Part shown: one piece after another, positions 3,651-64,000 of the stretch | How positions within the stretch are numbered: the first letter of the stretch is position 1 | Layout of the letters: the number at the start of each line of letters is the position of its first letter | Made by a program: the position numbers and the translations under genes | Assembly: GCA_903889905.1 (NCBI GenBank) | Contig: CAISZI010000008.1 | Span: 40,766 to 104,765, forward strand | Length of the DNA: 64,000 bases | From: Candidatus Wirthbacteria bacterium | Lineage (GTDB): Bacteria; Patescibacteriota; CG2-30-54-11 | Direction of reading: 5' to 3' | The notes under the pieces: model-generated | Databases searched by the model: none | What the model was told of the DNA's origin: nothing | Seen by the model: the letters and a program-made list of their open reading frames with translations, nothing else

Positions 3651-3750
3651 ACAACGGCATTATAACAAAGTTGACCCAATAAGCGGTAGGGTCGTCGCCA
3701 TTCTTCAAATCTTCCCCTCCCACCTGGGGGAGGGCAGGGAGAGCGGTTGC

Positions 3751-11527: not shown

Positions 11528-11539
11528 GAAAATGCCTCC

Positions 11540-33159: not shown

Positions 33160-33245
33160 ACTTCTCCCCCCCCCAGCGGGGGAGGATTAAAGGAGAGGGG
33201 ATTCCCTCTCTCTAGCTCTCCCCCAGCGGGGGAGAGGAAATGAGG
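33160..33245. repeat. two REP-like hairpins downstream of the pilus operon
   Basis: CTCCCCCCC-CAGC-GGGGGAG and CTCTCCCCCAGCGGGGGAGAG (9-bp stem, AGC loop). Confidence 0.7.
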
Positions 33246-34156: not shown

Positions 34157-34251
34157 TCAATCCGTCCAATTTGCGCAGGACCGCTCCAAGCAAATTGGAC
34201 ACCGATTCGTTCTTTTGCCTACTTTTCTTACTCAAAGAAAAGTAGATTCTC
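34157..34251 (+). repeat. conserved ~95-nt tRNA leader element with two hairpins (copy 1, upstream of tRNA-Leu-CAG)
   Basis: AATCCGTCCAATTTGCGCAGGACCGCTCCAAGCAAATTGGACACCGATTCGTTCTTTTGCCTACTTTTCTTACTCAAAGAAAAGTAGATTCT. Confidence 0.75.
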
Positions 34252-34338
34252 GCCGAAGTGGTGAAATTGGTAGACACGCAACGTTCAGGGCGTTGTGAGC
34301 TCACGCTCATGAGAGTTCAACTCTCTCCTTCGGCACCA
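34252..34338 (+). tRNA. tRNA-Leu (anticodon CAG), long variable arm, CCA encoded
   Basis: GCCGAAGTGGTGAAATTGGTAGACACGCAACGTTCAGGGCGTTG...CTTCGGCACCA. Anticodon loop TTCAGGG. Type II variable arm. Confidence 0.85.
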
Positions 34339-34436: not shown

Positions 34437-34532
34437 ATCAATCCGTCCAATTTGTGCAGGACCGCTCCAAGCAAATTGGACACCGATTCGTTTTTTGCCT
34501 ACTTTTTTACTCAAAAAAAGTAGAAAGTCTTT
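34437..34532 (+). repeat. tRNA leader element copy 2 (upstream of tRNA-Leu-GAG)
   Basis: Same element. Hairpin 2 reads CTACTTTTTTACTCAAAAAAAGTAG, a compensated change relative to copy 1. Confidence 0.75.
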
Positions 34533-35010: not shown

Positions 35011-35105
35011 TAATCCGTTCGTTTTGCGCAGGGCCGTCCCAAGCAAAACGAACACCGCTTCGTTCTTTTGCCAACTTTTCTTACTCAAAGAAAAGTTGAA
35101 TCTCC
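35011..35105 (+). repeat. tRNA leader element copy 3 (upstream of tRNA-Phe)
   Basis: GTTCGTTTTGCGCAGGGCCGTCCCAAGCAAAACGAAC and CAACTTTTCTTACTCAAAGAAAAGTTG. Both stems carry compensatory changes relative to copy 1. Confidence 0.75.
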
Positions 35106-46108: not shown

Positions 46109-46300
46109 CGGTTTTGGGCTTGGTTTGGGTGGAATGGTGGTTATCGAATTAGTATAGGGGAAATTTGTGGAAATAAGATGGATAGGGTGTCCGGATCTAA
46201 CCCCTCCTAACCTCCCCTTGCTCCAAGGGGAGGAATCGAACCCGCACTTTCACTTTCTGTGCTCCTCCCCTTAAGCTAAGGGGAGGCTGGGAAGGGTTAT
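45590..46300. repeat. cluster of G/C-rich REP-like palindromic hairpins (CCTCCCC-loop-GGGGAGG family) in the 5' end of giant gene 1 and the gene-1/gene-2 spacer
   Basis: CCTCCCCTTACTCTAAGGGGAGG (45612-45634), CTCCCTTACTCTAAGGGAGG, CTCCCCTTAAAGTAAGGGGAG, CCTCCCCTTGCTCCAAGGGGAGG, CTCCCCTTAAGCTAAGGGGAGG. Confidence 0.8.
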
Positions 46301-52300: not shown

Positions 52301-55144
52301 GGTCGGGGCATTGCCCAGGGGCAAGGTCGTGCCACTCGCAATCGTCATGCCGATCTGAACACTGATGGAACCAAAGACGCGATTAATCCCCACCGGTGCA
52401 TTGAAGGTCACACTGGAGGCGTCAATCGTAGAATTCCCCTGATAAGTACCGTTTAGATTGAGATTGACATTGGCAGCCGGAAAACCGGTATTGGGATTGT
52501 TGATAAGAAAACTGCTGGCGATATTGAATGTCGGTCCAGCGGCAGCGGTAAAAGTCTTGTTGGCATTATTGGTAAAAGCGCCGGTACCGTTGAAATAAGT
52601 ACTCGACGAATAAGTAGCCAGCGACGCCAAAGTCACGGTGCCGTTGTTAACAAAATCCCCATTCATGTTCCAGGTGGTGGCGGAACCGGAAATCGTCCCG
52701 TTGTTGGTCAACACGGCACCGACATTGCTCGTGAACGTACCTGTGCCAACCGTGATCGTACCGTTGTTGGTCAGGAAATACTGGCACCAACTCGAGGTAC
52801 AATAAGTATTCACCAGCGTGAGGGTCGCAGTATTGCCGAGCGGCAAAGTTGTCCCGTTGGCCACGGTCAACACCGGCGAATCGGCAAAACTACTGATCGA
52901 ACGACTGATCGTCACCAGATTAAAAGTGATTCCCGCGGCATCCACCGAACTACTGCCGACGACTGTCCCGTCAAACGCCACCGTACCGCCATTGGCGCTA
53001 AAGGTGGGTGCACCGGATTTGGTAAAACTGGCGGTGATATGCATGGTGCCGGAGGTATTGGTAAAAGTCCCGCTCGACAGGGTAAAACTGCCGGCATTGC
53101 CGCCCGACCCGATGTTGATCGCGCCACTGCCCCCCGCAAAGGTGCCCGCGCCAAAGACAAAGTTCGACGTCCCCACCGTCACCTGGTAACTGCCTGATTG
53201 GGTAAAAGTGCCACTGTAACTGCTGCCAAAACTCAGTCCCGCCACGTTGACATCCGCGCCCAGTGTCACTGATCCATTATGCGTGCTGGTAAAAACTGCC
53301 GTGTCACCGGATTGCGGATAGGAACCGCTGCAGCTGCCCCAGTTGCCGGCCGTGGCAAAAGTTCCGGTCGTGTCATTGAGCCAGGCGCAGGCCGCGTCCG
53401 AGGCGATCTGCCACGACCGCGCTTCGATAAAAAAAAGCGAACCGGTCGCCGAACCGGTCAAAAATTTGAGCGGCCCCACCAGATAAAATTCTGGCGATAC
53501 TTCGGGCGCCTTGTACTGGTAACCAATCGTTAGTACCGTGTTCGCATGCATGTCGACGGTCCAGTCGATGTGTTGCACATCACCGACTCTGCGCACCGTA
53601 GCGTAAGCTGTTGTCGATGCCAAAGGCGTTATCACAAAGTTCGCTGGCACGGTTTCTTCGATAACTCCCTGAAACGACTGATTGGCCGTGATGCGCAACG
53701 TGACCGGCAGCGGATTAAAGGGGAACAAACGTGTGGCAGCGATGCGTTCAACGGTAAGTGGTACACTGTCTTGGACGACGATGGTATCTGTAATCGTATA
53801 GGGCCCTTTGTCAGTCCGCGCCAGCAACGTGAGTTGATAATCGCCGCTATCGCCCAGTTTGTAGGTCGCCTCAAAGTCTGGCCTGGTATTGATACCATAA
53901 ACAAGGCACTCGGGGTTACGCACAATTTTGCCATTGGCCGTCGACAGTTCATCCACCTGACCATTGTGGCTAATACGCAAAAACAAGGCTGCATTGCAAT
54001 TCATATCCCCACGCTCATCGAGCACGGCAAAGGACAATTTGGCCATCTGGTTGGGTGTGTAAATGGACTGGTTGGCATTCATGGCCAGCACACCCCAGGT
54101 AAAATCCTGGGTAATTTGTTTGTGGTTACCGTTTTGGATGACGTCAACGGCCAGCCGATATTTGCCGGGCTTAAACGTATTCCCCTGTTTGGGCACAACG
54201 GCAAAGGAATAGGTATGATCCACGAGCGGCGACACCTGCACGCCAACGATGGCTGACTCAGTCCTGGCTTGATTCAAATCCGCATTGTCGCGCACGTAAT
54301 AGACTTTGGCATCCACCGTGGTCTGGCTGTCGGTGATTGTCGATGATACCGGTGCTACATCGGCGGCATAAGCTGTGGCAATCAGCGACGAAGTGGCCTT
54401 GGCCGGCAATTTGGCACTGGCGTCATAGGCCATGACAAACACCACCGCTTCACTGGCGCTGAAGTTAGTCTTGGGTTTGAGCAGCGTCTGCTGATCGTTT
54501 GCCACGCTAAACAGCGCGGCTGAGGAAACCGCAGTATTCCTGGATGAGGCAAAAGTCTGCGGTTTGGAGACAAAATAACTCGCCCCCAACCCCGCCAGCA
54601 GAACAATAAAAATCGCCCCCAGCGCGACCCGACGAGCATGTACAAAACGGCCAAAAACGGATTTAAGAGCGGGCAGGTGGATGGGAGTGGTGAGGAGGGG
54701 AATCACCCCCCTCATGGCCTCCCCCCGCTGCTGCAAGGGGAGGGATAAAATCTGCCCCGCCCCTGCCTTAGCAGGCTTTAGTCCCCCTTGCGGGGGGGAG
54801 GGCAGGGAGGGTGTAGTTTTGACCGCCACTGTCTCAACGGGCTTCATTCCCCCTTGCGGAAAGGAAGGTTGGGAAGGGGTAGTCTTATTAAACGTCACCA
54901 ATCTTCCCCTCCCCCCTTGGGGGAGGGCTGGGGAAAGGGGTCTTGCAGAAATCCCCTCTCTCTGTCTCTCCCCCGGGGGGGGAGAGGAAAGTTTGTTCCT
55001 CAGATCAACTGTCCTCGTCACTGGCATACTTCGCCCAATCCCATAACCTGTTTGCGGTCGCGGGGTATCGGTTGCATCGTCAAATTGTAGTTTTTGTCTG
55101 ATCTTGGCCATGGGTTCCTGTTTGATCTGACGGTATTGTAGCAC
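46307..55144 (-). CDS. giant membrane-anchored surface protein (2945 aa). Layout: N-terminal tail, TM anchor, beta-sandwich-like domains, beta-helix-like tandem repeats (autotransporter-associated type), about 9 LamG-like domains.
   Basis: TM helix VALGAIFIVLLAGLGASYFV. Three near-identical ~160-aa tandem repeats (NGTITVGTGTFTSNV...GTISGSATTW..GDFVNNGTVTLASL...). The C-terminal half is LamG-like repeats ending ...QIDDVRLYNYSLT.... A plausible internal start is the ATG at 54715. Confidence 0.9.
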   Translation of the reverse strand: MLQYRQIKQEPMAKIRQKLQFDDATDTPRPQTGYGIGRSMPVTRTVDLRNKLSSPPPGERQREGISARPLSPALPQGGRGRLVTFNKTTPSQPSFPQGGMKPVETVAVKTTPSLPSPPQGGLKPAKAGAGQILSLPLQQRGEAMRGVIPLLTTPIHLPALKSVFGRFVHARRVALGAIFIVLLAGLGASYFVSKPQTFASSRNTAVSSAALFSVANDQQTLLKPKTNFSASEAVVFVMAYDASAKLPAKATSSLIATAYAADVAPVSSTITDSQTTVDAKVYYVRDNADLNQARTESAIVGVQVSPLVDHTYSFAVVPKQGNTFKPGKYRLAVDVIQNGNHKQITQDFTWGVLAMNANQSIYTPNQMAKLSFAVLDERGDMNCNAALFLRISHNGQVDELSTANGKIVRNPECLVYGINTRPDFEATYKLGDSGDYQLTLLARTDKGPYTITDTIVVQDSVPLTVERIAATRLFPFNPLPVTLRITANQSFQGVIEETVPANFVITPLASTTAYATVRRVGDVQHIDWTVDMHANTVLTIGYQYKAPEVSPEFYLVGPLKFLTGSATGSLFFIEARSWQIASDAACAWLNDTTGTFATAGNWGSCSGSYPQSGDTAVFTSTHNGSVTLGADVNVAGLSFGSSYSGTFTQSGSYQVTVGTSNFVFGAGTFAGGSGAINIGSGGNAGSFTLSSGTFTNTSGTMHITASFTKSGAPTFSANGGTVAFDGTVVGSSSVDAAGITFNLVTISRSISSFADSPVLTVANGTTLPLGNTATLTLVNTYCTSSWCQYFLTNNGTITVGTGTFTSNVGAVLTNNGTISGSATTWNMNGDFVNNGTVTLASLATYSSSTYFNGTGAFTNNANKTFTAAAGPTFNIASSFLINNPNTGFPAANVNLNLNGTYQGNSTIDASSVTFNAPVGINRVFGSISVQIGMTIASGTTLPLGNAPTITVVNNGCMGVCQYDLTNNGTITVGTGTFTSNVSGFFTNAGTISGSATAWSHSGDFVNNGTVTLASLATFSSSAYFHGQGSFTNNASKTFTAAAGVTFNVADSFIITSPNTGFPTSNVTLNLNGSSSYNSTIDAPTVTFNTPVSINRSMSSFGTNALMTVASGTTLPLGNTPTLTLVNTYCANSNCSYGLTNNGTITVGTGTLTANVGGIFTNTGTLSGNVTTWAMNGDYVNNGTTTLSSLTTYTAAAYGYSFGHLTNNSGKTLTTAANPTFTIFGNLTINGASTFTTPISLILNGSGGTQTLDAANVTYNAWSKSAASALTLTQGFTTTDFTYSAGTISNPVGGMILNVAGNFSESSANNLGGANLTINFNGTGAQGFTKTNGTFASIFNVNKAGGTLTLNNALTVSGQTCTLQQGTLDINGQAFVCGSTFTVQATGTLRLVGSETPTAPTLSSGSTVSYKGDGDSAADNYNIQNWSYSNLSIDMTDASDTVVPGALGTITVAKDFSINSGGFTSPGTFNVAGNWTNNGTFNHNGGTVHLTGTDQTIVGSTTFNSLSKIATSPQTLVFPGNATKTQVILGTTTLKGNSTVNRLSLHSSAANTQWRFDPQSTRDFNYLNVKYSNNINVNVIDISGLDLTDEGHNTNWGFPMPGPVVGYWKLDEGSGQVVHDSAFNANSGTLGANSSVAADDPTWVTEDMCMSGKCLKFTAASSQYVNINSAITGVQTLSFWVRPTVWPAPLGALDGTAGTATLTTNGSGVIQVGAGFNSPTVYVNGKVSSQLALYQWQYVVVTTGTGMDSPNIVLGRVGAAYLNGFMDDVKVYNSAISATIVNLNYNNRSGASTNGGFALSRLANNYTALVDGLVGYWKMDDNVSGDNQTLVDASGAGNNGTTHYGANTTGMNCTGAGKYGGGCVFDGADDHADVTTYANISPGASNFTLAAWIKTSTAADIIDASNNSGGSFTSGYGLIIASGWACSGTDKLYFNFANGTNRETGLCSVTGVRDGAWHHVVVSVQRLKIMSIYIDGKLDASAPTTLTGNITLPHFKLANTMWENWWNGSQDDVRIYNRALTALEVQQLYTWAPGPVGWWKMDEGSGTSTADSSGKGSTGTITGATWLPAGKISNALNFSGTNTWVDEGNTTPLQMRSDFTISLWEKVANIDATYSRGMVSKFYNTVGNRGYRFGIGNGAGKLLFTISNDGTNAVQVASNSSIVAGAWTYVSAVYHASSGTVDFYVNGILDSTQSGLPTSVFNTAENFQIGTWDIGLNSHAFVGALDDIRIYNYALTQKQIESTQAADHPAVGTKMMAAYWKFDEGTGSTAHDSEAKGHDGSIVSATWTTAGQFGKALTFNGSSAYVNVPDAASLQPGAGASWTVSAWAKPANSDQTGPIVTKRQNSANYPQYSLMICGNSDCSAAGQFLVGSFTQANGTVDRIAVSTADVADGNWHYYAMVADQSTDKVRLFVDGKEVATTLTTHGTWPNITNADALRIGNDNSTHYFSGPIDEVKVYTYAITPDEVLLDFNHGSATVVGANTVDSSGNASRSDASLYCVPGDASSCNPPVAEWKFDEGTGSTATDTSGNAFNGAWQGSLGSQWKPGKIGGAGNFNGTNNYLTTNNGNSIKGLTQVTIEGWIYLTQLGVINPIFTEPINVDGSNRFQFMVNASNMLGIGGRAPDAGGYVTWASDSRALSANTWYHVAVVYDSVADVHHIYLNGVNYSQSTASVAFDNTTPNFVPRIGTDVAAANMFHGKIDDLRLYNYARTPAQIAWDYNRGLPVAWWKFDECQNATLHDSSGNNLSGTWSGAGGSQTSVGKCATNASTAWYSGRSGKYNGSLNFDGTDDVVTLGNPSGLDFTGPMTMSTWVKTSANAGRVIAKGSGTYMMSIGLGAGVNGKVPAVFFGSTQVYDNAVTVADGGWHHLVAIYTPSTSIAIYVDAIRKVYTTTSIPATLPSSAATTYIGGTDFPFTGQIDDVRLYNYSLTPTQVQILYNQNAVVNLK
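51330..52850 (-). repeat. three tandem ~500-bp intragenic repeats (about 80% identity) encoding the beta-helix-like repeat units of giant gene 2
   Basis: DNA and protein repeat units match, for example ...LTNNGTITVGTGTFTSNV...GTISGSATTW.NGDFVNNGTVTLASLAT.SSS.YF.G.G.FTNNA.KTFTAAAG.TFN... three times. Confidence 0.8.
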
Positions 55145-55320
55145 CTCAAAGCAGTGGCAAGCTACAGGAATGCAACTACCCCCTACCTAGCCTCCCCCCG
55201 CTGCTGCAGGGGGAGGGATATGATCTTCACCGCCCCTGTCTTAGCGGGGGAGGATGTAGGAGGGGGTAGGTTTGTCCGCCCCTGACCATTCTGATGGACG
55301 GGGGAGGGCAGCGAGGGGGT
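54700..55320. repeat. array of at least 8 G/C-rich REP-like hairpins, in the 5' end of giant gene 2 and the spacer toward the ATPase gene
   Basis: CCTCCCCCCGCTGCTGCAAGGGGAGG, CCCCCTTGCGGGGGGGAGG, CCCCCTTGCGGAAAGG, CCTCCCCCCTTGGGGGAGG, TCTCCCCCGGGGGGGGAGAGG, CCTCCCCCCGCTGCTGCAGGGGGAGG. Confidence 0.8.
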
Positions 55321-55323
55321 AAT

Positions 55324-56451
55324 TCAGACCACAAACCCCAACCAATTCTCCTTGCTCACCACCTCCCAACTTGCATCCGGATAGGTCCGGCGCCACAGTT
55401 TGGGTTCTTTGGATTTTTTGATGCCCCACTTGAATTCATAACCATGTAATTTGCCATCGTAGTCTTCGACGTAGTCCACTTCCTGCTGGGTGTAGGTGCG
55501 CCAGAAGTAGGTATTAGCATGGTGCAGTAAATAATGATTGCGCTTGAGGCGCTCGGTGAACAGGTAATTTTCCCACAACTGGCCGACATCATTACGCTGG
55601 TCAAGCGGATTGAAATTATTGATCAACGCGTTACGGACACCATTGTCAAAAAAATAAAAACGGGAACTTTTACTAATTTCCTTGCGCAGGTTGCGGCTAA
55701 AACCAGTAACACGCCGGATGACAAACACTTTTTCCAGAAGATCCAGATAACGTTCAATCGTGCCCAGGTTCAATGTTAGCGAGGATGCCAACTCCTTGAG
55801 CGAAACCTCATGGCCAATCTGAAACGCAACCAGGCGCAGTAGATCCAGCAATTTGTCGGCGTGGCGAATATCCTGGAGAGCAAGCAAATCCCGAAACAGG
55901 TAATTGTCGACGACCGAACCCAGAATTCCCCGCTTGTCGCCCATATCCACCGCCGTCACCACGTCAGGAAAACCACCAAAAATAAGCCGCTCGGGGAGAC
56001 GCTCTGTTGTCTGCATGAAATTTTCGGTCTTGCCAATCTCCATTTGCGCCAATGGATACAGATAATACATCCACTTGCGGCCCACCAGTGGTTCACCCAC
56101 CTGATTGGCTAGTTCAAAAGAGGATGAGCCAGTCGCCATGACGCGGATACCGGGAAAGCTATCCACGATAATTTTGAGATTCAGCCCTATCTCATCAATG
56201 CGTTGCGCCTCATCAATCAAAAGCACATCGGCGTTACCAATATTATTTTTCAATATTTCAAAACTACGCGAGCTGAGCCAGCGTGAATTCACATCATCGC
56301 CATTGACCCGAAGGACTTTGCCCTCAATCTGCGACTCGATATGTTTCATCAGCGTCGTTTTGCCCGTACGCCGTGGACCATAGAGAACAACAACTTTGTT
56401 GGGCGTCAGATGTGACAAAATAGTAGACGTGAGGGCTCGCTCAATGTACAT
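55324..56451 (-). CDS. AAA+ superfamily ATPase (AAA_14 + DUF4143 family, COG1373)
   Basis: Walker A LYGPRRTGKTT, Walker B ...VLLIDEAQ..., and a C-terminal DUF4143-like region with DNA-binding characteristics. Confidence 0.85.
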   Translation of the reverse strand: MYIERALTSTILSHLTPNKVVVLYGPRRTGKTTLMKHIESQIEGKVLRVNGDDVNSRWLSSRSFEILKNNIGNADVLLIDEAQRIDEIGLNLKIIVDSFPGIRVMATGSSSFELANQVGEPLVGRKWMYYLYPLAQMEIGKTENFMQTTERLPERLIFGGFPDVVTAVDMGDKRGILGSVVDNYLFRDLLALQDIRHADKLLDLLRLVAFQIGHEVSLKELASSLTLNLGTIERYLDLLEKVFVIRRVTGFSRNLRKEISKSSRFYFFDNGVRNALINNFNPLDQRNDVGQLWENYLFTERLKRNHYLLHHANTYFWRTYTQQEVDYVEDYDGKLHGYEFKWGIKKSKEPKLWRRTYPDASWEVVSKENWLGFVV

Positions 56452-56537
56452 ATTTGACCAAATTAGTATGTTGTACTATTCTAATTATATTGAATTAGTA
56501 CGTTTTTGTAAATAATCAATACCACGCAGTTGTTATA

Positions 56538-56624: not shown

Positions 56625-56725
56625 TATGGGAAGGGGAGTAACACCCCCCGCCCCCTCTTACTCTAAGAGGGGGTCTGATCCGATCCCCCCGCTTAAGGTA
56701 AGCGGGGGCTAGGGGGCGTTATGAA
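56625..56725. repeat. two REP-like hairpins between giant gene 3 and the ATPase gene
   Basis: CCCCCTCTTACTCTAAGAGGGGG and CCCCCCGCTTAAGGTAAGCGGGGG. Confidence 0.75.
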
Positions 56726-56728
56726 TCT

Positions 56729-59700
56729 TTATCTGAACTCCACCGCCGAACTCCCATTGGCCAGGGTCTGCACCTGCGTCGCGGTCAGGGCGTAGTTGTA
56801 GATGCGGACGTCGTCGATTTGGCCATTGTAATAAAGTCCTGAATAAGATCGTCTACCAATTTCAGTTGTGGCAGTACTGTAATCTATCACCGCACCTGCG
56901 TCATTATCCCCAATTACAAGTGTCTGACTGATGCCATTAATATAAATATGAATCCCCGACGCATTGCCTGATCCGTCATATGTCATGACAACATGATTCC
57001 ATGAGTTCAGAATCAACCCGTTTGACACCGTGACATAGTATTTATCAGTTCCCGAAGAAGCGAGAACTGCAGAAAGTCCATCGTCGTCAAATATAGTGAA
57101 ATTCCAACCATTAAATGTAGAGGCACTCTGGTTTTGGATTATAGCGGAATAATTTGTCATACCTGTGATTGGTTTGATCCAAGCCGAAGCAGAAAAAGAA
57201 CTAGTTGTCTGAAATGATAATGCGGTTTTGTTGGTTCCAGCATTTAAATAATCACTATTCCCACTATTAAACGCCAGACTCCCATTAATCTTCCCACTCG
57301 CCCCGTTCCCCCACGCCGTCGCTGCTGTGGTGCAAGTCCCGACCGCTGTCCCGCCCATCCATGTTCCGTTCAATCCATTGCCACTCCGATCATGCAACAC
57401 CGTACCCGTACACTCGTCGAAATCCCAGTACGCCACTGGCGCGCCACGGTTGTAGTCCCAGGCAATCTGTGCAGGCGAGAGTGTATAAGTATAAATCCTG
57501 ACTTGATCTATCAGTCCATTAAATGCATTGGTATAGCTTGCACCATTTTTGAGTGCACCGAGATAAAGCGGTCTACTGTTATTGTTTAACCCTGCAAAAG
57601 TTGTCGCCACTTCGTTTTTGCCATCAATATAGCCACTTACCGCCGTTCCACTGATCGTAATCGCCACATAATGCCACTTGCCATCCTTGAGGTTGGTAGT
57701 CGAAAGAGTAACGCTGTTGTTGGAACCAAAATACAGTGTCAGATATCCGGTTGCATTGGCAACATACATTCCATAGTCATAGATCGGTGATAGAGCCATA
57801 TCGCCTTTGCCAACGATGAAACTTCCGCCAGCCGATGTTTTGATCCAGGCCGAATAAGTCATCTGAGCTGACGACGCAAGTGCTGCCGGTGTCGAAAGAT
57901 CAACATGTTTTGTGGCATTAAAATTCCCAGCATTCCCAAACTTGCCTGGCTTCCATGAATTCCCCCCCTGCCACGTCCCATTATTACCGCCACCACTTGA
58001 ATCATTGACCGTCCCGCCGCTGCCCTCATCAAATTTCCACTCCCCCACCGGCGGGTTACAAGTGCTGCTATCCCCAGGCACGCAATACGCCCGGCTGGCA
58101 GAGTTGTCCGGAGCTCCGGTCGAAGTCGTGCCACTAGCGCCCATGGCGGTCAGGGAACCGTGGTTGAAGTCGACGATGACGTCGTCGGAGGTCAGATTGT
58201 AGTTATAAATTTTGGTTTCATCGATAGTGCCAGCCATGCGATTCGCTGTGCCACCATCCTCGGAACCGGTCTCCAGATTGGCATTGGCGGCGCTATCGTA
58301 GATGGCAGCTGGGATCGCAGTGGTGTTCTGGCCGTTCTGTTTGGAACCGACGTAAACCGTGAGTGACGTACTCGGAACATAAACACCCGTGACGTAATAC
58401 CAGGTGCCCGTGGCAAGCGTCGTCGTACCCGTTGCGGTTTTGACATTACCTGCGGTGCCGTCCGAACTGATATCAAAGTTCACCTTGCCGCTCGCGTCGG
58501 TATAGAGGCGGTATGAACGGTAGTTGGTCGCACCTGACGTCTTCCATTTGGCCATGATGTCATGCGCCGCGTTGTTGGTCGTAAGGTTGACCCAGCCCGA
58601 TAGGGTGATCGCACCGGTTTGACGCAAGATCGAGTTATTGCCATGGGTGACATAAGCTGTGGTGCCGTTGAAGCTTAGTGCTTTGCCAAATTTGCCGCTA
58701 TTGGTCCAGCTCGGCAGTGTGGCGCCGGATAAGGTGCCATTCAGCACAGAACCCGAGTTGCCGGAATTGTTGATCGTACCGCCAAACCCTTCGTCCATGT
58801 CCCAGTGGCCAATCATCATTTTGGTCCCCACACCGGGGTGGTTGTAATTCATGTCTTCGACAATTTGTTCAGGGGTGCGGGCGTAGTTGTAAATTATCAA
58901 GTTATCTATAGAACCGTTAAAAAAAGCACTTCTTTTTCCAATTGCCAAGTTGCCCGCATTTGCCAATGACAAGGCTGAAGACCATGTATCCTGCTGGACA
59001 CCATTGAAGTAAGTATAAAAATTATTCCCATTGCGCTCGACAGTACGGTAAACCCACTGTCCAAGACTATATGGACCAATACTGCGTGCACTGGCAATGT
59101 CCCAGCCTGAACCGTTAGAACTTGCCCAGAATCGTGAATAATCGCAAGTAAAATCCTGGCCCGCGACAAAACCGACATAGCCACCGACATTCGCCGCATC
59201 TGAAAGTAGTACCGCCTGGTCAAAAGAACAACTCTTTTTATTTTCCCACCATGAAATAGTAAAACCACCTGTCCCAAAATTAAATACCGAGCTACTGGGA
59301 ACCTGGACAAAATTATCCGTCCCATTGAAATTCCCCGCATTACTGATCTTCCCCACTCTCCACTGATTCCCCAATGTCCCCGCCCATGTCCCCGTATTCC
59401 CAAAACCGCTGCTGTCATTGACCTTGGCGCCACTGGCTTCATCAAACTTCCACCACCCCACCGGTCCCGGCGCGAAGTTATAAAGTTTCTGAACATCGTC
59501 GGCACTGAGAACGCGGTTATAAACACGCACCTCATCAATGGTACCCGGGAACAAATTGAGCAGTGCACTGGCAGAATCCGAATACGACGCCCCGATATAG
59601 AAATTATGGTAATACCCGTTGAGTGTGCGGGCGCCTGAGTTTTCCAGTAAACCATTGAGATAAAGTTTGGCGGTCGTGCCATCGAATGTTCCTACCACGT

Positions 59701-62700
59701 GATACCAGGTATTGGCCACGATCGTCGTTGCGGACTTCATGTCATTGCCGTTGCCGCAGCCGGTGGGGTCAAGGTTCCAGTCAACTTTGCTGTCATTGGT
59801 AATGCCAATACGATAGCCATAAAGGCAGCTCGAGACGTCCTGTCCCATCATGCCTGCAATTGCATACAAATTGTTGACACTAGTGGGTTTGACCCAGGCT
59901 GAAACCGTAATCGTCGTTGGTTTGAGCAGTGACTGATCACCCATGCTGACATTATCATTGGTTCCATTAAAACCACCACCTTTGCCGTATTTTCCCACGG
60001 TGTAATGGTTTGCGCCTGCTCCTGCCCAAGTGCCGGTAAGCCCATTTCCCGATGCATCAGCCAGTGATCCCGAAGATTCATCCATTTTCCAATACCCCAC
60101 CAATCCATCGGTCAGTGCCGGGTCATTGGCATTCGACGAACCCAGTTTGATGCCACTACCATCAGCTGAAAGACTGCCGCGGGCATTGAAATCGTTTTTG
60201 ACCTGCGCCAAGGTGCGCGGGTAACTAAACAGCCGGATCTCATCCATAAACCCGGCAAAATATCCGCCATTGACCCGGCCCAGCATAACATTGGAGGCGA
60301 TGACGGCGGTCGACGAAGTGACCGTCACCAGTTGCCATTTGTTCAAGGTGAGTTGCGAACTAACCACATTATTGACATAAATCGTGGGAGAGACAAAACC
60401 TGCTCCGGCGACAATCACATTGGATCCATTGGTCGTAAGATTGGCGTCACCGGTGGCACCGTTGAGGACTAGCAGGCTGGTCGAGGCTGCGGTTGGTTTG
60501 ACCCAGAATGAAACGGATTTGATGCCACTCAAAGCCGTTGCAACATTGATATACTGGGACGAAACCGCAGTAAACTGCAAACATTTGCCACTCACGCACA
60601 TGTCCTCGGTCGCCCAGGTCGGGTCATTCGCGGCGACGGCATCAGTCGCACCCAGAGTTCCAGTTTGTCCATTGGGCAAAGTGGCAAAAGTTGGTGTCGT
60701 GGTACCAGAAATGGCAATATTGGAATAAACCGCCACACGACCGACACTGCCAGCACCACCCGATGCTCCACCACCGCCGCCGCCACCGGCGTACAAATAA
60801 GTACAGCAGTCCCACATCCAGACATAACCATGCCCGCCACCGCCACCATCTGCAGTCCCGCCACTCCCTGGTGTGATCGTATAGGATTGCCCATAATCAT
60901 GGGTATTGACGCCGCTGCCACTACCGCCGATGGCACCAGTGCCGGCAGTTCCACCCGCTGCGGTAACGATACCTGCGCCCAATGTGACTGCTGCCGACTT
61001 GATGACGAGACTGCCACCGGCACCACCGCCACCACCTCCTCCGCCACCACCACCACCGGCAGGCCCACCAGCGCCGGAACCAGCAGTTCCATTAGAGCCC
61101 ACCGCACCATTGCTGCGAATCGCTCCGCTGGTGGTGATAGAACTTGCATAAATCGCTACAATCCCCCCACCGGCCCCTCCTGCTCCACCCGCCTGTCCCA
61201 CGCCAGCACTTCCACCTTCCGAACCGCCACTGCCTCCAGCAGCACCTGATGCTCCCTGGCTACCAAAATACAATCTCGTCAGATTTGCCGCACCATAGGT
61301 AGCATTATTTTTGAAACGGCTGGATCCACTACCTGGTGTTGGTGTGACAAAATCAGTATAGCTACCGCCCGCTCCGTTACCACTGGTGGCAATTGAACCA
61401 CCCGCGCCACCCACAGAAAAAACACCGCTCCCTCCCCCACTGGCTCCACCGGCAGCAGTAGCGGCACCACTGCCACCACCCGGCCCTGGGCCAAAAATAG
61501 TACCGGGGACTTCATAAGTATCATAACCATACCCATCATCACCCGATCCAGCAATCCCATCGCCACTCCCACCACTACCTCCTGTAGAGTCACCACCACT
61601 CTCGCCAATATCCGCACCACCGCCACCGCCGCCACCACCTTTGGTCGGCATGGCGCCAGCGGTTGCATAGGCACCCCCCTGACCGCCGCCACCACCACCG
61701 CCACCCGGCATATGGGAACCACCCGACCCGCCACCAGCACTGCCGCCGGGAATTGCGAGTAAACTCGGATTGGCCGCTGAATAACCTTTGCCATTCATAT
61801 CAATTGTTCCCGTCGCCGTCACGGCACCGGTGGCGCGAAAAAAAAGCACACCGCCTTTGGTGCCATTAAACGCATCAACAGTTAGCGTCGCTCCGCCGGT
61901 AACGCTGACGGTGGTGTAATTCGGTACGCGCTGCACTATGATCTTCTGGGAAATACCATCATAGCGGTAATCAAAAGGGTCCGTTACATTGATGTCGGTA
62001 TTGTTGGTGCCACTGAAACTTGCAATGCGTCTGGTTTCGTATAACCCGACGGAACTGTAATCCGTTGCCGTCCCCTGTAGATCCATGACCAGAATTTCAT
62101 CACCGACCGCAAGCCCAAGTGTATTGGGATTGGAGGAAGTTACCGTGATTTTGGTGTCACCAACACTAGTCAAAGTCGTTGAACTGAAATTCACGGCATC
62201 GGCCTTGGCTCTCGCCACGCAGGTGTTGGTCGCGGCCGCAGTCAACGTGATCGTGCCACTCGGGACACTGCAAGCTCCGTCAGCGCCATTGCCATAATCA
62301 GGGTTGGCCTTGCCGCCTACGGCATCATTCAGAATCTGGCCAGTGCCTTCATCCAGCTTCCAGTAAACTACCGGGCTCGATGACAGTTCCTCTGTTCCGC
62401 TCACCGCAACGCCTGGGAGTGACGATGCTGTTTTCCTGACAAATATCCAATCCACAGAAGTGGCAAAGGCCAACGTATTGCCAAATTCCAATTCCAGGCT
62501 ACCCGTCGGCACATTGGTCGTGGGATTGGAAAGCTGTGCGCCATTTTGATAGAACTTGGAACCAGCGGCACTGTAACGGTTGATGCGGTAATTCTGCATG
62601 GCAGAGCGATCCGTGACCGTAAGCGCGCCGCTGGTAGTGGCGGTACTGCTGGCTTTGGAACGGGTCACGACATTGGTCAAGGTACTCGTGTTGGTCAGGA

Positions 62701-63994
62701 ATTCCACGTCATTGGTATCACCACTGTCGCGATAACCGGCCGAAGCCAGATAATTTACCGCATCCCCGGGAATCGTACGCATCCCAAACTCGGCGATCGA
62801 ATATCCAAAATTGGCAACCGACCGGATTTTGGAATTGGTGCCGATCGTGGCAACACCATTGGCCAATGTCACAGTACCGGTCGTGGCCCACTTACTGCTG
62901 TCCAAAAACGTACCGCTGAAATCTTCAAAAAATTGAAAGACACTGCTGCCATTTTGTATCGATGGCGCACTGGGATTGCCGTAGTAAACATAAATCGTGG
63001 CGCCGGAGGTCGGGAGAATAGGAACTTTGGTCCAGATGGTGGTGGTCTGGGTATCGCAGGCATTGTTGCCGGTTTCAATCCAGTAATTCAGCAAAACTCC
63101 ATTGCCGTCAGTCACGCGGACATCACTGCAATCCGATGTCATTTTGCCCTGATAAATGAGTCCACTGGAATTAGCACTACGGGTGTCGAGGGTAAAGGAC
63201 ACCTGAAAATCCGTCAGATCACCACCCGAACCATTGGTCAGGGCAACCGACTGGCGATAAAGCCAGCTGTCGTTCCACCAGGAAGCCTGTGCGCTGCCAC
63301 GACCAACGAGATACCAGGTGAGTGCCGTGCTGAAGAGGATGAGGACCGCGATCGCGGCAAGGGACGCCCGGCCTTTTGATGTCTTGATTCTTCGGCCAAA
63401 CTCCCCCAGCCCCCCCTTTAACCAAAGTGGGGGTAAAGCAAGACGACGAAAGATACCCCCTATTAGAGTAAGAGGGGGCAGGGGGGTGTTACTCTCCGTC
63501 TTTGTCCCACTCCCCTCTTTGATTAAAGAAGGGGGAAGGGAGTTCTCTTTCCCCACCGACGGTGCCGGGGAGGGCGCATTACGATGCGCCCCTACGGGAG
63601 GTTTGGGTTCTTTCTTCTTTTTCCTATACAGCGAGGCAAAGGGAGAGGAGGGATTGGGTACGGGGGTGGGTTCGGGGGCAGATACGGGTTCGGGTTCAGG
63701 GGAAGACCGGCCCTGGGCCGCTTCTACGGGGACAAAGGATTGGGGATTTACCCCCCTCCTGCCTCCCCCCGCTGCTGCAGGGTAAGGGATGACAGTCTCA
63801 ATCTTCCCCGCCCCTGTATCCGCACGGGGGAGGGCAGGGAGGGGGGCGTTCGTCTGCGATCTCAAATCCATCACCCGTCGCTCATCAGCATGAGCTATGG
63901 ATGACTTCGCCACACGCCCAAAATCCAACCGCTTACGGGCTGAGGCGGTATCATTGGCTGTTTTGAATTGTGGGGTGGGTTTGGTTTGGGACAT
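56729..63994 (-). CDS. giant membrane-anchored surface protein (2421 aa), paralog of the 38285..46108 gene. Layout: DUF2341-like domain, Gly-rich region, about 8 LamG-like domains.
   Basis: TM helix ASLAAIAVLILFSTALTWYLV. DUF2341-like block ASWWNDSWLYRQSVAL...DVRVTD...IYVYYGN. About 600 aa after it are 60-70% identical to the other paralog. Gly-rich region, then LamG-like repeats ending ...QIDDVRIYNYALT.... Confidence 0.9.
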   Translation of the reverse strand: MSQTKPTPQFKTANDTASARKRLDFGRVAKSSIAHADERRVMDLRSQTNAPLPALPRADTGAGKIETVIPYPAAAGGGRRGVNPQSFVPVEAAQGRSSPEPEPVSAPEPTPVPNPSSPFASLYRKKKKEPKPPVGAHRNAPSPAPSVGKENSLPPSLIKEGSGTKTESNTPLPPLTLIGGIFRRLALPPLWLKGGLGEFGRRIKTSKGRASLAAIAVLILFSTALTWYLVGRGSAQASWWNDSWLYRQSVALTNGSGGDLTDFQVSFTLDTRSANSSGLIYQGKMTSDCSDVRVTDGNGVLLNYWIETGNNACDTQTTTIWTKVPILPTSGATIYVYYGNPSAPSIQNGSSVFQFFEDFSGTFLDSSKWATTGTVTLANGVATIGTNSKIRSVANFGYSIAEFGMRTIPGDAVNYLASAGYRDSGDTNDVEFLTNTSTLTNVVTRSKASSTATTSGALTVTDRSAMQNYRINRYSAAGSKFYQNGAQLSNPTTNVPTGSLELEFGNTLAFATSVDWIFVRKTASSLPGVAVSGTEELSSSPVVYWKLDEGTGQILNDAVGGKANPDYGNGADGACSVPSGTITLTAAATNTCVARAKADAVNFSSTTLTSVGDTKITVTSSNPNTLGLAVGDEILVMDLQGTATDYSSVGLYETRRIASFSGTNNTDINVTDPFDYRYDGISQKIIVQRVPNYTTVSVTGGATLTVDAFNGTKGGVLFFRATGAVTATGTIDMNGKGYSAANPSLLAIPGGSAGGGSGGSHMPGGGGGGGGQGGAYATAGAMPTKGGGGGGGGADIGESGGDSTGGSGGSGDGIAGSGDDGYGYDTYEVPGTIFGPGPGGGSGAATAAGGASGGGSGVFSVGGAGGSIATSGNGAGGSYTDFVTPTPGSGSSRFKNNATYGAANLTRLYFGSQGASGAAGGSGGSEGGSAGVGQAGGAGGAGGGIVAIYASSITTSGAIRSNGAVGSNGTAGSGAGGPAGGGGGGGGGGGGAGGSLVIKSAAVTLGAGIVTAAGGTAGTGAIGGSGSGVNTHDYGQSYTITPGSGGTADGGGGGHGYVWMWDCCTYLYAGGGGGGGASGGAGSVGRVAVYSNIAISGTTTPTFATLPNGQTGTLGATDAVAANDPTWATEDMCVSGKCLQFTAVSSQYINVATALSGIKSVSFWVKPTAASTSLLVLNGATGDANLTTNGSNVIVAGAGFVSPTIYVNNVVSSQLTLNKWQLVTVTSSTAVIASNVMLGRVNGGYFAGFMDEIRLFSYPRTLAQVKNDFNARGSLSADGSGIKLGSSNANDPALTDGLVGYWKMDESSGSLADASGNGLTGTWAGAGANHYTVGKYGKGGGFNGTNDNVSMGDQSLLKPTTITVSAWVKPTSVNNLYAIAGMMGQDVSSCLYGYRIGITNDSKVDWNLDPTGCGNGNDMKSATTIVANTWYHVVGTFDGTTAKLYLNGLLENSGARTLNGYYHNFYIGASYSDSASALLNLFPGTIDEVRVYNRVLSADDVQKLYNFAPGPVGWWKFDEASGAKVNDSSGFGNTGTWAGTLGNQWRVGKISNAGNFNGTDNFVQVPSSSVFNFGTGGFTISWWENKKSCSFDQAVLLSDAANVGGYVGFVAGQDFTCDYSRFWASSNGSGWDIASARSIGPYSLGQWVYRTVERNGNNFYTYFNGVQQDTWSSALSLANAGNLAIGKRSAFFNGSIDNLIIYNYARTPEQIVEDMNYNHPGVGTKMMIGHWDMDEGFGGTINNSGNSGSVLNGTLSGATLPSWTNSGKFGKALSFNGTTAYVTHGNNSILRQTGAITLSGWVNLTTNNAAHDIMAKWKTSGATNYRSYRLYTDASGKVNFDISSDGTAGNVKTATGTTTLATGTWYYVTGVYVPSTSLTVYVGSKQNGQNTTAIPAAIYDSAANANLETGSEDGGTANRMAGTIDETKIYNYNLTSDDVIVDFNHGSLTAMGASGTTSTGAPDNSASRAYCVPGDSSTCNPPVGEWKFDEGSGGTVNDSSGGGNNGTWQGGNSWKPGKFGNAGNFNATKHVDLSTPAALASSAQMTYSAWIKTSAGGSFIVGKGDMALSPIYDYGMYVANATGYLTLYFGSNNSVTLSTTNLKDGKWHYVAITISGTAVSGYIDGKNEVATTFAGLNNNSRPLYLGALKNGASYTNAFNGLIDQVRIYTYTLSPAQIAWDYNRGAPVAYWDFDECTGTVLHDRSGNGLNGTWMGGTAVGTCTTAATAWGNGASGKINGSLAFNSGNSDYLNAGTNKTALSFQTTSSFSASAWIKPITGMTNYSAIIQNQSASTFNGWNFTIFDDDGLSAVLASSGTDKYYVTVSNGLILNSWNHVVMTYDGSGNASGIHIYINGISQTLVIGDNDAGAVIDYSTATTEIGRRSYSGLYYNGQIDDVRIYNYALTATQVQTLANGSSAVEFR
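63395..63860. repeat. array of G/C-rich REP-like hairpins in the 5' end of giant gene 3
   Basis: CCCCCCTTTAACCAAAGTGGGGG, CCCCCTATTAGAGTAAGAGGGGG, CCCCTCTTTGATTAAAGAAGGGGG, CCTCCCCCCGCTGCTGCAGGGTAAGGG, CCCCGCCCCTGTATCCGCACGGGGGAGGG. Confidence 0.75.
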
Positions 63995-64000
63995 AAGTCT

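Follow-up and report, generated by a model that had tools for sequence, protein, structure and literature searches.

The window analysed here, a 64-kb stretch of DNA, carries three paralogous giant genes (referred to as genes 1, 2, and 3), with putative starts at 46108, 55111, and 63994 respectively. The annotated ATG of giant gene 3 is at 63994, and its long N-terminal tail has a high content of Pro, Gly, Ser, Lys, and Arg (P 0.15, G 0.09, K+R 0.16). The tail leads to a transmembrane anchor that is preceded by the basic residues RRIKTSKGR and followed by WWNDSWLYR, the start of DUF2341 (a domain that Pfam places at residues 288-371). Repeat scores below refer to a family model, R1, which was built from 57 foreign units only, taken from other phyla, and then run on the 64 kb. 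The features of this region are:

63362-63994, minus strand: N-terminal tail of giant gene 3 (codons 1-211), housing hairpin elements; based on translation and composition
63305-63361, minus strand: transmembrane anchor of gene 3, LAAIAVLILFSTALTWYLV, the most hydrophobic 19-mer (mean Kyte-Doolittle 2.21)
63397-63433, minus strand: left unit of the gene 3 doublet, CCCCC(A)CTTT-GGTT-AAAGGGGGG plus flank GGGGGAGTT; degenerate, hairpin of 9 pairs
63456-63491, plus strand: right unit of the gene 3 doublet, CCCCCTATTA-GAG-TAAGAGGGGG-CAG-GGGGGTGTTA; R1 39.0 bits, E = 1.1e-8
63509-63545: degenerate hairpin CCCCTCTTTGATTAAAGAAGGG of 8 pairs with a GGGAGTT-like flank; translates to LPPSLIKEGSG
63572-63591: perfect 8-bp hairpin GGGCGCAT-TACG-ATGCGCCC; translates to VGAHRNAP; fold z = -3.4
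63749-63860, minus strand: "C+B" composite of a second repeat type, CCCTCCCTGCCCTCCCCC...ACAGGGGCGGGGAAGAT, spacer, CCCTyCCCyTGCAGCAGCGGGGGGAGGC-AGGAGGGGGGTA

The first-pass annotation had described 63395-63860 as an array of at least five G/C palindromes in the 5' coding region of gene 3, between the ATG and a membrane helix. The array is real and lies as described, with the anchor placed at 63361-63305: there are 4 hairpins of at least 8 bp in this segment, versus a mean of 0.67 expected from 300 dinucleotide shuffles, among which the maximum was 3 and none (0/300) reached 4. Perfect or near-perfect G/C-capped hairpins are found at 63410-63433 and 63456-63478 (9 pairs each), and at 63512-63533 and 63572-63591 (8 pairs each). 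Both peptides that had been read from the array, PLPPLTLIGG and LPPLWLKGGLGE, are present in the gene 3 translation. The fifth palindrome is a degenerate copy (see below). Of the four hairpins, 63572-63591 is a singleton of another type, the sole copy in the window and outside the repeat family, and 63512-63533 is not significant under R1.

The two units of the gene 3 doublet together translate to NTPLPPLTLIGGIFRRLALPPLWLKGGLGEF, and the predicted fold of the doublet as a whole (63395-63495) has an energy of -47.5 kcal/mol (z = -3.1); its left unit matches R1 over the full length (24.4 bits, E = 1.1e-4). The neighboring 63509-63545 is possibly an eroded unit of the repeat; its fold is no better than that of shuffles (z = -1.0), and R1 does not pick it up even at a cutoff of E = 10. 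The C+B composite translates to APLPALPRADTGAGKIETVIPYPAAAGGGRRGV and is a 112-nt imperfect long hairpin (-70.4 kcal/mol, z = -5.5), within which the palindrome with loop CGCTGCTGCA is a degenerate copy. Its purine arm GGGGGGAGG is followed by the mirror GGAGGGGGG, as read off the sequence, and 63749-63781 gives a weak R1 match (E = 0.58).

A 36-nt repeat unit and its copies around the giant genes

The repeat unit is 36 nt long and consists of a 10-bp hairpin, CCTCCCCTTA-nnn-TAAGGGGAGG, and a purine flank that mirrors the 3' arm, in the order pyrimidine arm, 3-nt loop, purine arm, 2-3-nt linker, mirror purine tract, and terminal GTTA. Units end in TAAC/GTTA, often in TCATAAC/GTTATGA. Two inverted units make up a doublet of 80-100 nt that can also fold as one long hairpin, and the window doublets do so at -45 to -65 kcal/mol (z from -3 to -8). 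The hairpin arms covary with pairing kept, and changes in the flank mirror those in the arm: after arm GGGGAGG, the flank is GGAGGGG 126 times and the other main mirror 4 times, and after arm GAGGGGG it is GGGGGAG 43 times versus 1. Eight window units contain 8-9 of 10 allowed purine-motif triads (9/10 by manual count at 63456-63491, with arm TAAGAGGGGG, linker CAG, and third tract GGGGGTGTTA), and units of this composition would be able to form intrastrand purine-motif triplexes in single-stranded DNA.

In the 64 kb, R1 finds ten full-length units that make five doublets (E 1e-4 to 1e-12, including 63397-63491), and no comparable match elsewhere. The window copies belong to a family defined independently of the window, and the R1 matches bear out the earlier grouping of the hairpins as one REP-like repeat family. 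All five doublets are inverted pairs, each joining two similar subtypes; doublets in other genomes pair a CCCCCTC-type unit with a CCTCCCC-type unit. The copies at genes 1 and 2 and between genes are:

45611-45713: doublet in the gene 1 tail, translating to NPSQPSLTLREGGLSRFWHFLIPPLRVRGGKEGL; R1 53.1 + 49.1 bits
45986-46067: doublet in the gene 1 tail, translating to NPSKSPLTLRGDFQKSSLRVREDKGGL; R1 37.0 + 42.0 bits
46198-46299: intergenic doublet upstream of gene 1; R1 52.1 + 52.2 bits
54690-54995, minus strand: gene 2 tail, with a C+B composite (54690-54835) and further G/C hairpins (54783-54815, 54852-54881, 54907-54927, 54966-54986); PQGG-type peptides
55165-55325, minus strand: intergenic region upstream of gene 2, with two C-type segments and one B-type hairpin, CCTCCCCCCGC-TGCT-GCAGGGGGAGG
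56639-56721: complete intergenic doublet just past the gene 3 stop codon (56731-56729); R1 43.0 + 45.6 bits

As had been claimed, genes 1 and 2 show a pattern like that of gene 3, with 4 hairpins versus 0.44 expected in the gene 1 tail (0/300 shuffles) and 3 versus 0.51 in the gene 2 tail (2/300 shuffles). The gene 1 doublets fold at -65.4 kcal/mol (45611-45713, z = -7.9) and -45.8 kcal/mol (45986-46067, z = -6.0), and the latter stands between the conserved KKLEFG and DLR motifs and shows up as an insertion in the alignment with genes 2 and 3. R1 matches are weak in the gene 2 tail (E = 0.04-1), and one is found upstream of the gene at 55177-55216 (E = 0.011). The doublet past gene 3 (-58.9 kcal/mol, z = -5.9) has stops in all three sense frames and can be aligned over its full length with copies from Uhrbacteria, Nitrospira, Desulfuromonadaceae, and others; the next gene has a promoter-like site (56512-56484), and the doublet stands upstream of it.

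Intergenic and coding copies are one DNA element: coding 63454-63497 is ~93% identical to intergenic 56633-56676 (manual count from the alignment), and a three-way alignment of the C+B composite joins one intergenic copy (55165-55325) with two coding ones (54690-54835 and 63749-63860). PPLxLRGG-like peptides recur in all three tails, as they would if they were a selected protein repeat (e.g., a proline-rich binding motif) with DNA palindromy as a by-product. We find this scarcely credible and rejected it: identical DNA units are also found between genes, in either orientation and with every frame interrupted by stops, the arm pairing and mirror-flank covariation are not protein-level constraints, and a model from other phyla matches at the DNA level.

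The first-pass annotation had linked the hairpins to the 5' ends of the three giant genes. The link to the genes stands, as all five strong doublets of the 64 kb are in or beside them. The elements are not confined to 5' ends: copies also fill the intergenic region that follows gene 3 and those that precede genes 1 and 2. All three intergenic regions of the giant-gene cluster hold copies, whereas the remaining 19 intergenic regions in the window that reach 60 nt contain no strong copy and one weak match. This clustering exceeds what simple tolerance would give and has a local cause: short-range spread, a recently acquired region, or selection.

Translated copies and copies in other genomes

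REPs annotated at N-termini often in fact precede the true start codon (Di Nocera et al., 2013, PMC3733652), and the arrays could likewise be 5' UTR structures in untranslated leaders. In gene 2, ATG 54715 and GTG 54706 lie between array and anchor, and a start past the array is possible there. Genes 1 and 3, however, have no in-frame ATG, GTG, or TTG between the last doublet and the anchor; the last in-frame start-type codons before the anchor, at 45820 in gene 1 and GTG 63556 in gene 3, are upstream of the respective doublets (45611-45713 in gene 1). Further, the gene frame is the sole frame without stops through each of the A-type doublets in coding sequence (3/3), and conserved N-terminal motifs precede the arrays in frame. 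The M..QF / ARKRLDFG and DLR motifs of gene 3 are common to genes 1 and 2, KKLEFG/RKRLDFG/RQKLQF and DLR are conserved upstream of the arrays in the three paralogues, and the homologue P0002 has NKAKILDF at its own N-terminus. Given the missing downstream starts, the single open frame, and the shared upstream motifs, the reading frames indicate that the gene 1 and gene 3 copies must be translated. An untranslated leader is thus very improbable, and the "leader structure" proposed earlier does not fit these two genes. Six homologues (P0001-P0006) have about 20-45 residues before the anchor, without a Pro/Gly hairpin stretch.

Outside the window, the pattern CCTCCCCTTANNNTAAGGGGAGG matches more than 120 loci among the matches listed, a count that is a lower bound. 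The hosts listed include Geobacter/Desulfuromonadales, Nitrospirota, Thermodesulfobacteriota, Myxococcota, MAGs labelled Gammaproteobacteria, Clostridia, and at least eight candidate phyla radiation (CPR) lineages. The flanks and the two-unit layout are conserved among these copies, some of which occupy intergenic regions beside unrelated genes in a wide range of phyla, and 27 of 136 hairpins in other genomes fall within stop-free spans of at least 150 codons.

The element resides in frame in housekeeping genes of other genomes. In CPR genomes it is read in the same frame within RuvB, TsaD, RecG, Fmt, and PrmC, and the Pfam domains of the last four span the inserts. An alignment of the Uhrbacteria RuvB with a solved RuvB covers residues 9-239 and 271-363, and the ~29 extra residues between them are the element. 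RecJ also holds an in-frame element, with the host named by its flanking peptide alone and no Pfam check.

The consistent association with the giant genes had earlier been taken to point to a role rather than to chance insertion. This does not follow, because the element is scattered across many phyla and is in frame in these unrelated housekeeping genes. Such a scatter is what one would see of a promiscuous insertion that is tolerated. We consider it probable that the gene 3 hairpins, which are copies of a dispersed repeat, are tolerated in a dispensable tail and are not a dedicated control element. A short dispersed non-coding repeat family would have settled where harm from extra DNA is slight, namely between the genes of the giant-gene cluster and in the N-terminal tails ahead of the three surface-protein anchors. 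A copy within a gene would persist solely in the one stop-free frame, giving peptides of the NPSx-PPLxLRGG and PPLRVRGG-EGL types, and would require a protein segment tolerant of about 30 extra residues. The giant-protein tails are presumably disordered and cytoplasmic, and the insertions presumably near-neutral. The tails may have grown from the ~20-45 residues of homologues to 170-215, largely via such insertions, and the link to 5' ends may reflect tolerance and the clustering habit of the family rather than a dedicated function. Neither the doublet flanks nor the Pfam scan of window ORFs gave an empty site, a target-site duplication, or a mobilising enzyme, so that we infer insertion from the shorter homologues.

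The hairpins might instead be cis-acting RNA elements that aid giant-gene expression, either as 5'/3' stability barriers on 7-9-kb mRNAs or by slowing early translation during anchor insertion. The five strong doublets and every weaker relative are gathered in the giant genes or the intergenic regions beside them, which would agree with this, as would the very stable structures (z from -3 to -8) and the doublet directly past the gene 3 stop, a classic site of mRNA-stabilising REPs (PMC3733652). We nevertheless think it unlikely. The element is also in RuvB, TsaD, RecG, Fmt, PrmC, and unrelated intergenic regions of many phyla, the coding copies are 100-600 nt into the ORF rather than at an mRNA end, and no T-run terminator is present. 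A plain RNA hairpin needs no mirror flank, purine-motif triplexes do not form in RNA, and the E. coli analogue discussed below showed neither promoter nor terminator activity (PMC4666352). Even as tolerated repeats, structures predicted to be this stable (-45 to -70 kcal/mol) in the first 600 nt of the mRNA could well affect expression.

Relation to known repeat systems

Intrastrand-triplex (class II purine-motif) repeats known as BoxC, PIT elements, or TM_ECO were reportedly described by Hoyne, Maher, and colleagues in 2000. Such repeats consist of a pyrimidine stem, a complementary purine stem, and a mirror purine/T tract (loops of 1-6 nt, stems of at least 8 nt), and the window units have the same three-block (pyrimidine-purine-purine) layout. 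In TM_ECO, a loop of 3-6 nt and then one of ~3 nt (often TTA) precede the second purine stem, which would lie antiparallel on the first in G*G-C, A*A-T, and T*A-T triads, and the unit here is alike. Both are of similar size (about 37 nt versus 36 nt), dispersed in high copy number, and commonly found as inverted pairs of two subtypes, with no associated transposase known. Despite the same architecture, the family here is distinct in sequence: its stems have a fixed TTA/TAA by the loop and a terminal GTTA, and the pattern CCCTCNCCC-N3-6-GGGNGAGGG-N3-GGGNGAGGG for TM_ECO has no match in the window. TM_ECO/BoxC/PIT repeats are found in E. coli and cyanobacteria (Holder et al., 2015, PMC4666352), i.e., in Enterobacteria and cyanobacteria rather than in CPR, Nitrospirota, and Desulfuromonadales, and are reported as always intergenic in E. 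coli, whereas the family here is repeatedly translated within genes.

Among E. coli strains, rearrangement is far more frequent at TM_ECO loci than in intergenic regions used as controls (PMC4666352), and the elements here could similarly be DNA instability or recombination hot spots that vary the tails and upstream regions of the three paralogues, with this variation tolerated or even favoured. The tails do differ in element number, type, and position while their N-terminal motifs and anchors align, the C+B composite is common to the gene 2 upstream region and the coding sequences of genes 2 and 3, and the purine-motif triad rules are satisfied at 8-9 of 10 positions. Against this, triplex folding of TM_ECO was shown in vitro but went undetected in vivo (PMC4666352), diversifying selection is unlikely to act on a cytoplasmic tail, and there is no close relative in the protein database (best match 55% identity) and no match in exact look-ups. 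We therefore give this explanation little credence.

REPs and REPINs are also short G/C-rich palindromes, mostly intergenic and sometimes clustered, in which two inverted copies with a short spacer form one long hairpin, as is found here. Intragenic REP dimers encode 20-30 residues, favour N-termini, and are often in replication/repair genes (Di Nocera et al., 2013, PMC3733652), all of which is shared by the copies here. However, the conserved terminal GTTA/TAAC takes the place of the REP tag GTAG/CGTC, the mirror-repeat flank is not a REP feature, and the unit is nearly identical across phyla, whereas REP families are lineage-specific and co-inherited with the RAYT that mobilises them. The RAYT-mediated rearrangement suggested earlier finds no support in the window, with no GTAG or CGTC tag at unit ends. 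RAYTs are Y1/HUH transposases whose genes usually have REPs on either side, and a Pfam scan of 42 window ORFs turned up neither these nor any further transposase domain. In Rfam 15, only tRNAs reach the gathering score in the window, and permissive thresholds add just spurious microRNA-precursor matches.

Rickettsia palindromic elements (RPEs) insert in frame (Ogata et al., 2000, via PMC10969869) in many unrelated genes including essential ones, adding a conserved peptide while the protein is kept. The same behaviour is found here in RuvB, TsaD, RecG, Fmt, and PrmC. RPEs are about 100-150 bp and confined to Rickettsia, versus 36-nt units and 80-100-nt doublets in many phyla here, and homology to RPE-1 to RPE-10 is unlikely given the difference in size and host range. 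MITEs are likewise small, non-coding, and multi-copy with terminal inverted repeats (here TCATAAC...GTTATGA), but are typically far longer. The flanks of 64 doublet occurrences (both strands read) show no direct repeat beyond the TCA/TGA inverted-repeat extension, no target-site duplication was detected in them, and no parent insertion sequence is known. The architecture matches BoxC/PIT/TM_ECO, and the behaviour intragenic REPs and RPEs.

Units are conserved almost to the base from phylum to phylum, and the mirror covariation is strict. Both point to a constraint that acts on the element, and this constraint could include a benefit to the host. A more far-reaching and rather doubtful proposal is that this is an unnamed, cross-phylum mobile triplex-hairpin repeat whose doublets routinely colonise CPR genes in the single stop-free frame, adding cassettes of ~30 residues (NPSx-PPLxLRGG...PPLRVRGG-EGL) to essential proteins. 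It would have built most of the three tails, and would act as local DNA-instability hot spots leading to strain variation in the tails and adjacent regulatory regions.

The long, odd-looking N-terminal extensions of the giant genes are probably genuine coding sequence into which selfish or neutral DNA has been packed, not mis-annotated leaders. BoxC/PIT-type triplex repeats have been described as strictly intergenic in E. coli (PMC4666352), yet their relatives in architecture are translated here, even in RuvB, TsaD, and RecG of ultra-small CPR genomes, where extra DNA of any sort is unexpected. For annotation, PPLxLRGG-like peptides in predicted proteins would flag these insertions rather than functional motifs. 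The near base-level conservation of a 36-nt element across distant phyla, with no known transposase, could point to an undescribed mode of spread or host interaction.

Hairpins in the N-terminal tails of the giant genes

The three giant genes of the window are arranged on the minus strand as follows.

38285-46108, minus: gene 1
46307-55144, minus: gene 2 (probable ATG at 55111)
56729-63994, minus: gene 3

All three encode multi-LamG proteins, with an additional DUF2341 domain in genes 1 and 3, and each protein runs from a Pro/Gly/Ser/Lys-rich start of 170-215 residues (referred to here as the tail) through a single hydrophobic helix to the extracellular domains. The gene 3 tail is probably disordered, and the basic residues directly preceding the anchor suggest that it is cytoplasmic. 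Its start at ATG 63994 is backed by alignment with genes 1 and 2 (the window ends at 64000).

The first-pass annotation described at least five G/C palindromes in the gene 3 tail. Four hairpins with at least 8 pairs are present in 63395-63860 (63410-63433, 63456-63478, 63512-63533, and 63572-63591), a number reached in 0 of 300 dinucleotide shuffles of this segment (mean 0.67 hairpins). The fifth palindrome (loop CGCTGCTGCA) forms a weak hairpin locally and belongs to a 112-nt segment, 63749-63860, which folds as one long imperfect hairpin (-70.4 kcal/mol, z = -5.5). The peptides quoted in that annotation do occur in the gene 3 translation, and the pattern it reported for genes 1 and 2 was recovered as a hairpin excess of the same kind in both tails in the shuffle comparison.

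The remainder of the window is ordinary chromosome, encoding PolA, FtsH, ribosomal protein S1, RpoD, DnaG, type IV pilus genes, YebC, and tRNAs. Here, dnaG contains an in-frame TAG at 12431-12433 (minus) within the Toprim domain (…TSEQM*LAKRF…), resulting in ORFs 12431-13315 and 11540-12400; this could reflect a pseudogene, a sequencing error, read-through, or a genuinely split primase. RpoD (9707-11527) has an N-terminal extension of ~250 residues ahead of region 1.1, and AT skew is strong (-0.25) across 10001-12000. The genes for tRNA-Leu(CAG), tRNA-Leu(GAG), and tRNA-Phe have a conserved A/T-rich hairpin, CTACTTTTCTTACTCAAAGAAAAGTAG, 6-9 nt upstream (at 34219-34245, 34499-34523, and 35072-35098); its first two copies are preceded by caccgattcgtt..ttttgc, and it may act as a promoter or in processing of the tRNAs. 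The tRNA-Leu(CAG) at 34252-34338 was found by ARAGORN and is absent from the Rfam list at gathering threshold.

A repeat family with a mirror-image flank

Scanning the 64 kb for C4...G4 hairpins gave 25 matches, 20 of which lie at 45614-46283, 54721-55304, 56644-56708, and 63403-63830. The best-formed hairpins are perfect 23-mers in which a 10-bp stem closes on a 3-nt loop (CCTCCCCTTA-nnn-TAAGGGGAGG); variant stems stay complementary, and a conserved flank, GGAGGGGTTA, follows 2-3 nt beyond the hairpin. Together these form a 36-nt unit (a pyrimidine arm, the loop, a purine arm, a linker, and a second purine tract), and two inverted units 2-30 nt apart form a doublet of 75-100 nt with the ends TCATAAC...GTTATGA. 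A candidate triplex-forming oligonucleotide is CCCCCTATTAGAGTAAGAGGGGGCAGGGGGGTGTTA.

A covariance model of the unit (R1), built from 57 units that all came from other genomes, was used to search the entire window with filters off. It recovered ten full-length units (E = 1e-4 to 1.5e-12), which pair into five doublets.

45611-45713: doublet in the coding tail of gene 1
45986-46067: doublet in the coding tail of gene 1
46198-46299: intergenic doublet upstream of gene 1
56639-56721: intergenic doublet immediately downstream of gene 3
63397-63491: doublet in the coding tail of gene 3, the core of the finding

Manual counting from the alignment puts the identity between the right-hand unit of this gene 3 doublet and the intergenic unit 56633-56676 at ~93%. 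Hairpin 63512-63533 has no significant R1 match, leaving its membership in the family unsupported, and the perfect hairpin at 63572-63591 (GGGCGCAT-TACG-ATGCGCCC, encoding VGAHRNAP in the gene 3 tail) was rejected as a member, being an unrelated singleton and the sole copy in the window. A second, related repeat type is found both between genes, upstream of gene 2, and in two of the tails, those of gene 2 and gene 3 (63749-63860 in the latter). In it, a C-type segment precedes the hairpin CCCTCCCCyTGCAGCAGCGGGGGGAGG with its mirror, and the match to R1 is weak (E = 0.011-0.7). Further G/C hairpins (e.g., CTCTCCCCC-AGC-GGGGGAGAG) occur in two other intergenic regions (33162-33186, 33216-33236, and 3713-3736). 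They resemble the gene 2 tail hairpin 54966-54986, match R1 weakly, and may be eroded relatives of the family.

Nothing within a unit is complementary to its 3′ flank. The flank instead mirrors the purine arm, and the two covary (GGGGAGG with GGAGGGG, GAGGGGG with GGGGGAG, GGGAGGG with GGGAGGG, GGGGGAG with GAGGGGG, and GAGGAGG with GGAGGAG, arm first). Across 416 hairpin strands, the flank was the arm's own mirror in 126 cases against 4 for one main arm class and in 43 against 1 for the other, and the window itself holds four different arms, each with its own matching mirror. The A-to-T changes in the flank are those that T*A-T triads allow, and the units in the window comply with the antiparallel purine-motif triad rules at 8-9 of 10 positions. 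We therefore predict from these regularities that the units may fold into triplexes. G-quadruplex formation was dropped as many variants have only two G-tracts, and integron attC sites were dropped because the resemblance is limited to the AAC...GTT ends. Pairing of a Shine-Dalgarno-like/anti-Shine-Dalgarno-like kind was considered, as the purine arms resemble TAAGGAGG, and was not adopted.

This architecture is shared with the BoxC/PIT repeats of E. coli (TM_ECO), which are reported to be always intergenic, often in inverted pairs of two subtypes, and which have no known transposase and are tied to local genomic instability (PMC4666352). The TM_ECO sequence pattern has 0 matches in the window; the family described here therefore shares the TM_ECO design and not its sequence. 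Among the matches listed from other genomes, doublets nearly always combine a CCCCCTC-type and a CCTCCCC-type unit, whereas those in the window pair two similar subtypes.

Copies in other genomes and inside reading frames

Scanning the 23-mer pattern in one genome per species gave more than 120 loci among the matches listed. Their hosts, again among the matches listed, are Geobacter and other Desulfuromonadales, Nitrospirota, Thermodesulfobacteriota, Myxococcota, Clostridia, MAGs labelled Gammaproteobacteria, and many lineages of the candidate phyla radiation (CPR), including Uhr-, Doudna-, Gottesman-, Nomura-, Portnoy-, and Dojkabacteria, Saccharibacteria, and Parcubacteria; this taxonomic spread rests on those matches, and some MAG labels may be wrong. 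Copies from Uhrbacteria, Nitrospira, and Desulfuromonadaceae can be aligned with the intergenic doublet 56639-56721 over its full length. In one Desulfuromonadaceae MAG (JAQUHA010000012.1; L017:2700-4230), doublets form a tandem array with a period of ~220 bp and at least 8 hairpins within 1.5 kb. The 23-nt hairpin pattern occurs in just 9 of 2.9 million viral contigs (L121-L129), so phages are no obvious reservoir and the family is essentially chromosomal.

Rfam searches of the window and four foreign loci, at gathering and permissive thresholds, returned tRNAs and spurious microRNA matches only, and a full-text literature search with the element sequence returned only unrelated primer matches. 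The Geobacter "multicopy nucleotide sequences" were considered as the same element and rejected, as the published descriptions concern other repeats. A protein search with the element-encoded peptide yielded 8 candidates and zero matches.

Several features argue that the gene 3 copies are translated. The last in-frame ATG/GTG/TTG ahead of the anchor lies upstream of the doublet both in gene 3 (GTG 63556) and in gene 1 (GTG 45820, upstream of doublet 45611-45713). In each coding doublet of the R1 family, every frame but that of the gene is broken by stops; in the intergenic copy that follows gene 3, all three frames are. The three paralogues also have in common the in-frame N-terminal motifs M..[KR]KL.F and DLR upstream of the arrays, and the N-terminus of one homologue of the DUF2341 region of gene 3 (P0002) itself carries NKAKILDF. 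For gene 2, a start downstream of the array at 54715 or 54706 is formally possible.

The copies in the giant genes are probably insertions, as suggested by two comparisons. Doublet 45986-46067 of gene 1 aligns as extra sequence between motifs that gene 1 has in common with genes 2 and 3. Each of the six homologues retrieved for the DUF2341 region of gene 3 has ~20-45 residues before the anchor and no Pro/Gly hairpin stretch; the query, residues 1-480 of gene 3, was dominated by low-complexity words and gave six distant matches, sufficient to show the short tails. The closest homologues of this region are 35-55% identical, one of them labelled candidate division CPR3.

Elsewhere, stop-free spans of at least 150 codons hold 27 of the 136 hairpins of other genomes (among the matches listed), read in the same frame as in the window (NPSx-PPLxLRGG, PPLRVRGG-EGL). 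The hosts, mostly in CPR genomes, are RuvB, PrmC, TsaD, RecG, Fmt, RecJ (named from flanking peptide only), a sugar kinase, and membrane proteins. The loci listed below come from MAGs of Uhrbacteria, Doudnabacteria, and Gottesmanbacteria and from MAGs labelled Gammaproteobacteria.

L009:3561-4667 (minus), L021, L041, L081, L089, L104: in-frame copies in RuvB, PrmC, Fmt, TsaD, RecJ, and RecG

Compared with solved RuvB structures, the Uhrbacteria RuvB matches over residues 9-239 and 271-363, and the ~29 extra residues between them are the doublet.

Clustering at the giant genes

All three intergenic regions of the giant-gene cluster and all three tails carry copies, and no strong copy lies in any of the other nineteen intergenic regions of the window that are 60 nt or longer; clustering at the giant genes is thus real within the window. 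The first-pass annotation had tied the hairpins to the 5′ ends of these genes. The association with the genes holds, but 5′ ends are not its only site, as one doublet directly follows the gene 3 stop codon. Just downstream of that doublet, and upstream of an AAA/DUF4143 gene, is a near-consensus sigma-70-type promoter (TTTACA-17-TATAAT, 11/12 matches; 56484-56512, minus). Around the elements, scans for promoters and terminators yielded no convincing candidates other than this strong promoter-like site of the AAA gene.

As to interpretation, the repeat family, its coding location, and its clustering stand, but the dedicated role and the RAYT-mediated mechanism gain no support from the data. No RAYT, GTAG/CGTC tag, or transposase domain was found in the window, and no target-site duplication at the doublets. 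The most economical reading is that of tolerant tails and local clustering, in which the tails would serve as tolerant landing sites and copies would cluster through short-range spread or copying between paralogous regions. Two rival readings, in which the elements help to stabilise the mRNA or make the DNA locally unstable, are less likely.

In its behaviour the family is like intragenic REPs and RPEs. REPs are known to form clusters and ORF-internal dimers encoding 20-30 residues, with an N-terminal excess (PMC3733652), and in-frame palindromic elements are described from Rickettsia (PMC10969869). The element is a new sequence variant combining a BoxC/PIT-type triplex-hairpin architecture with intragenic REP/RPE behaviour. 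Its main points of interest are the conservation of the unit across phyla and its repeated translation within genes of small CPR genomes.
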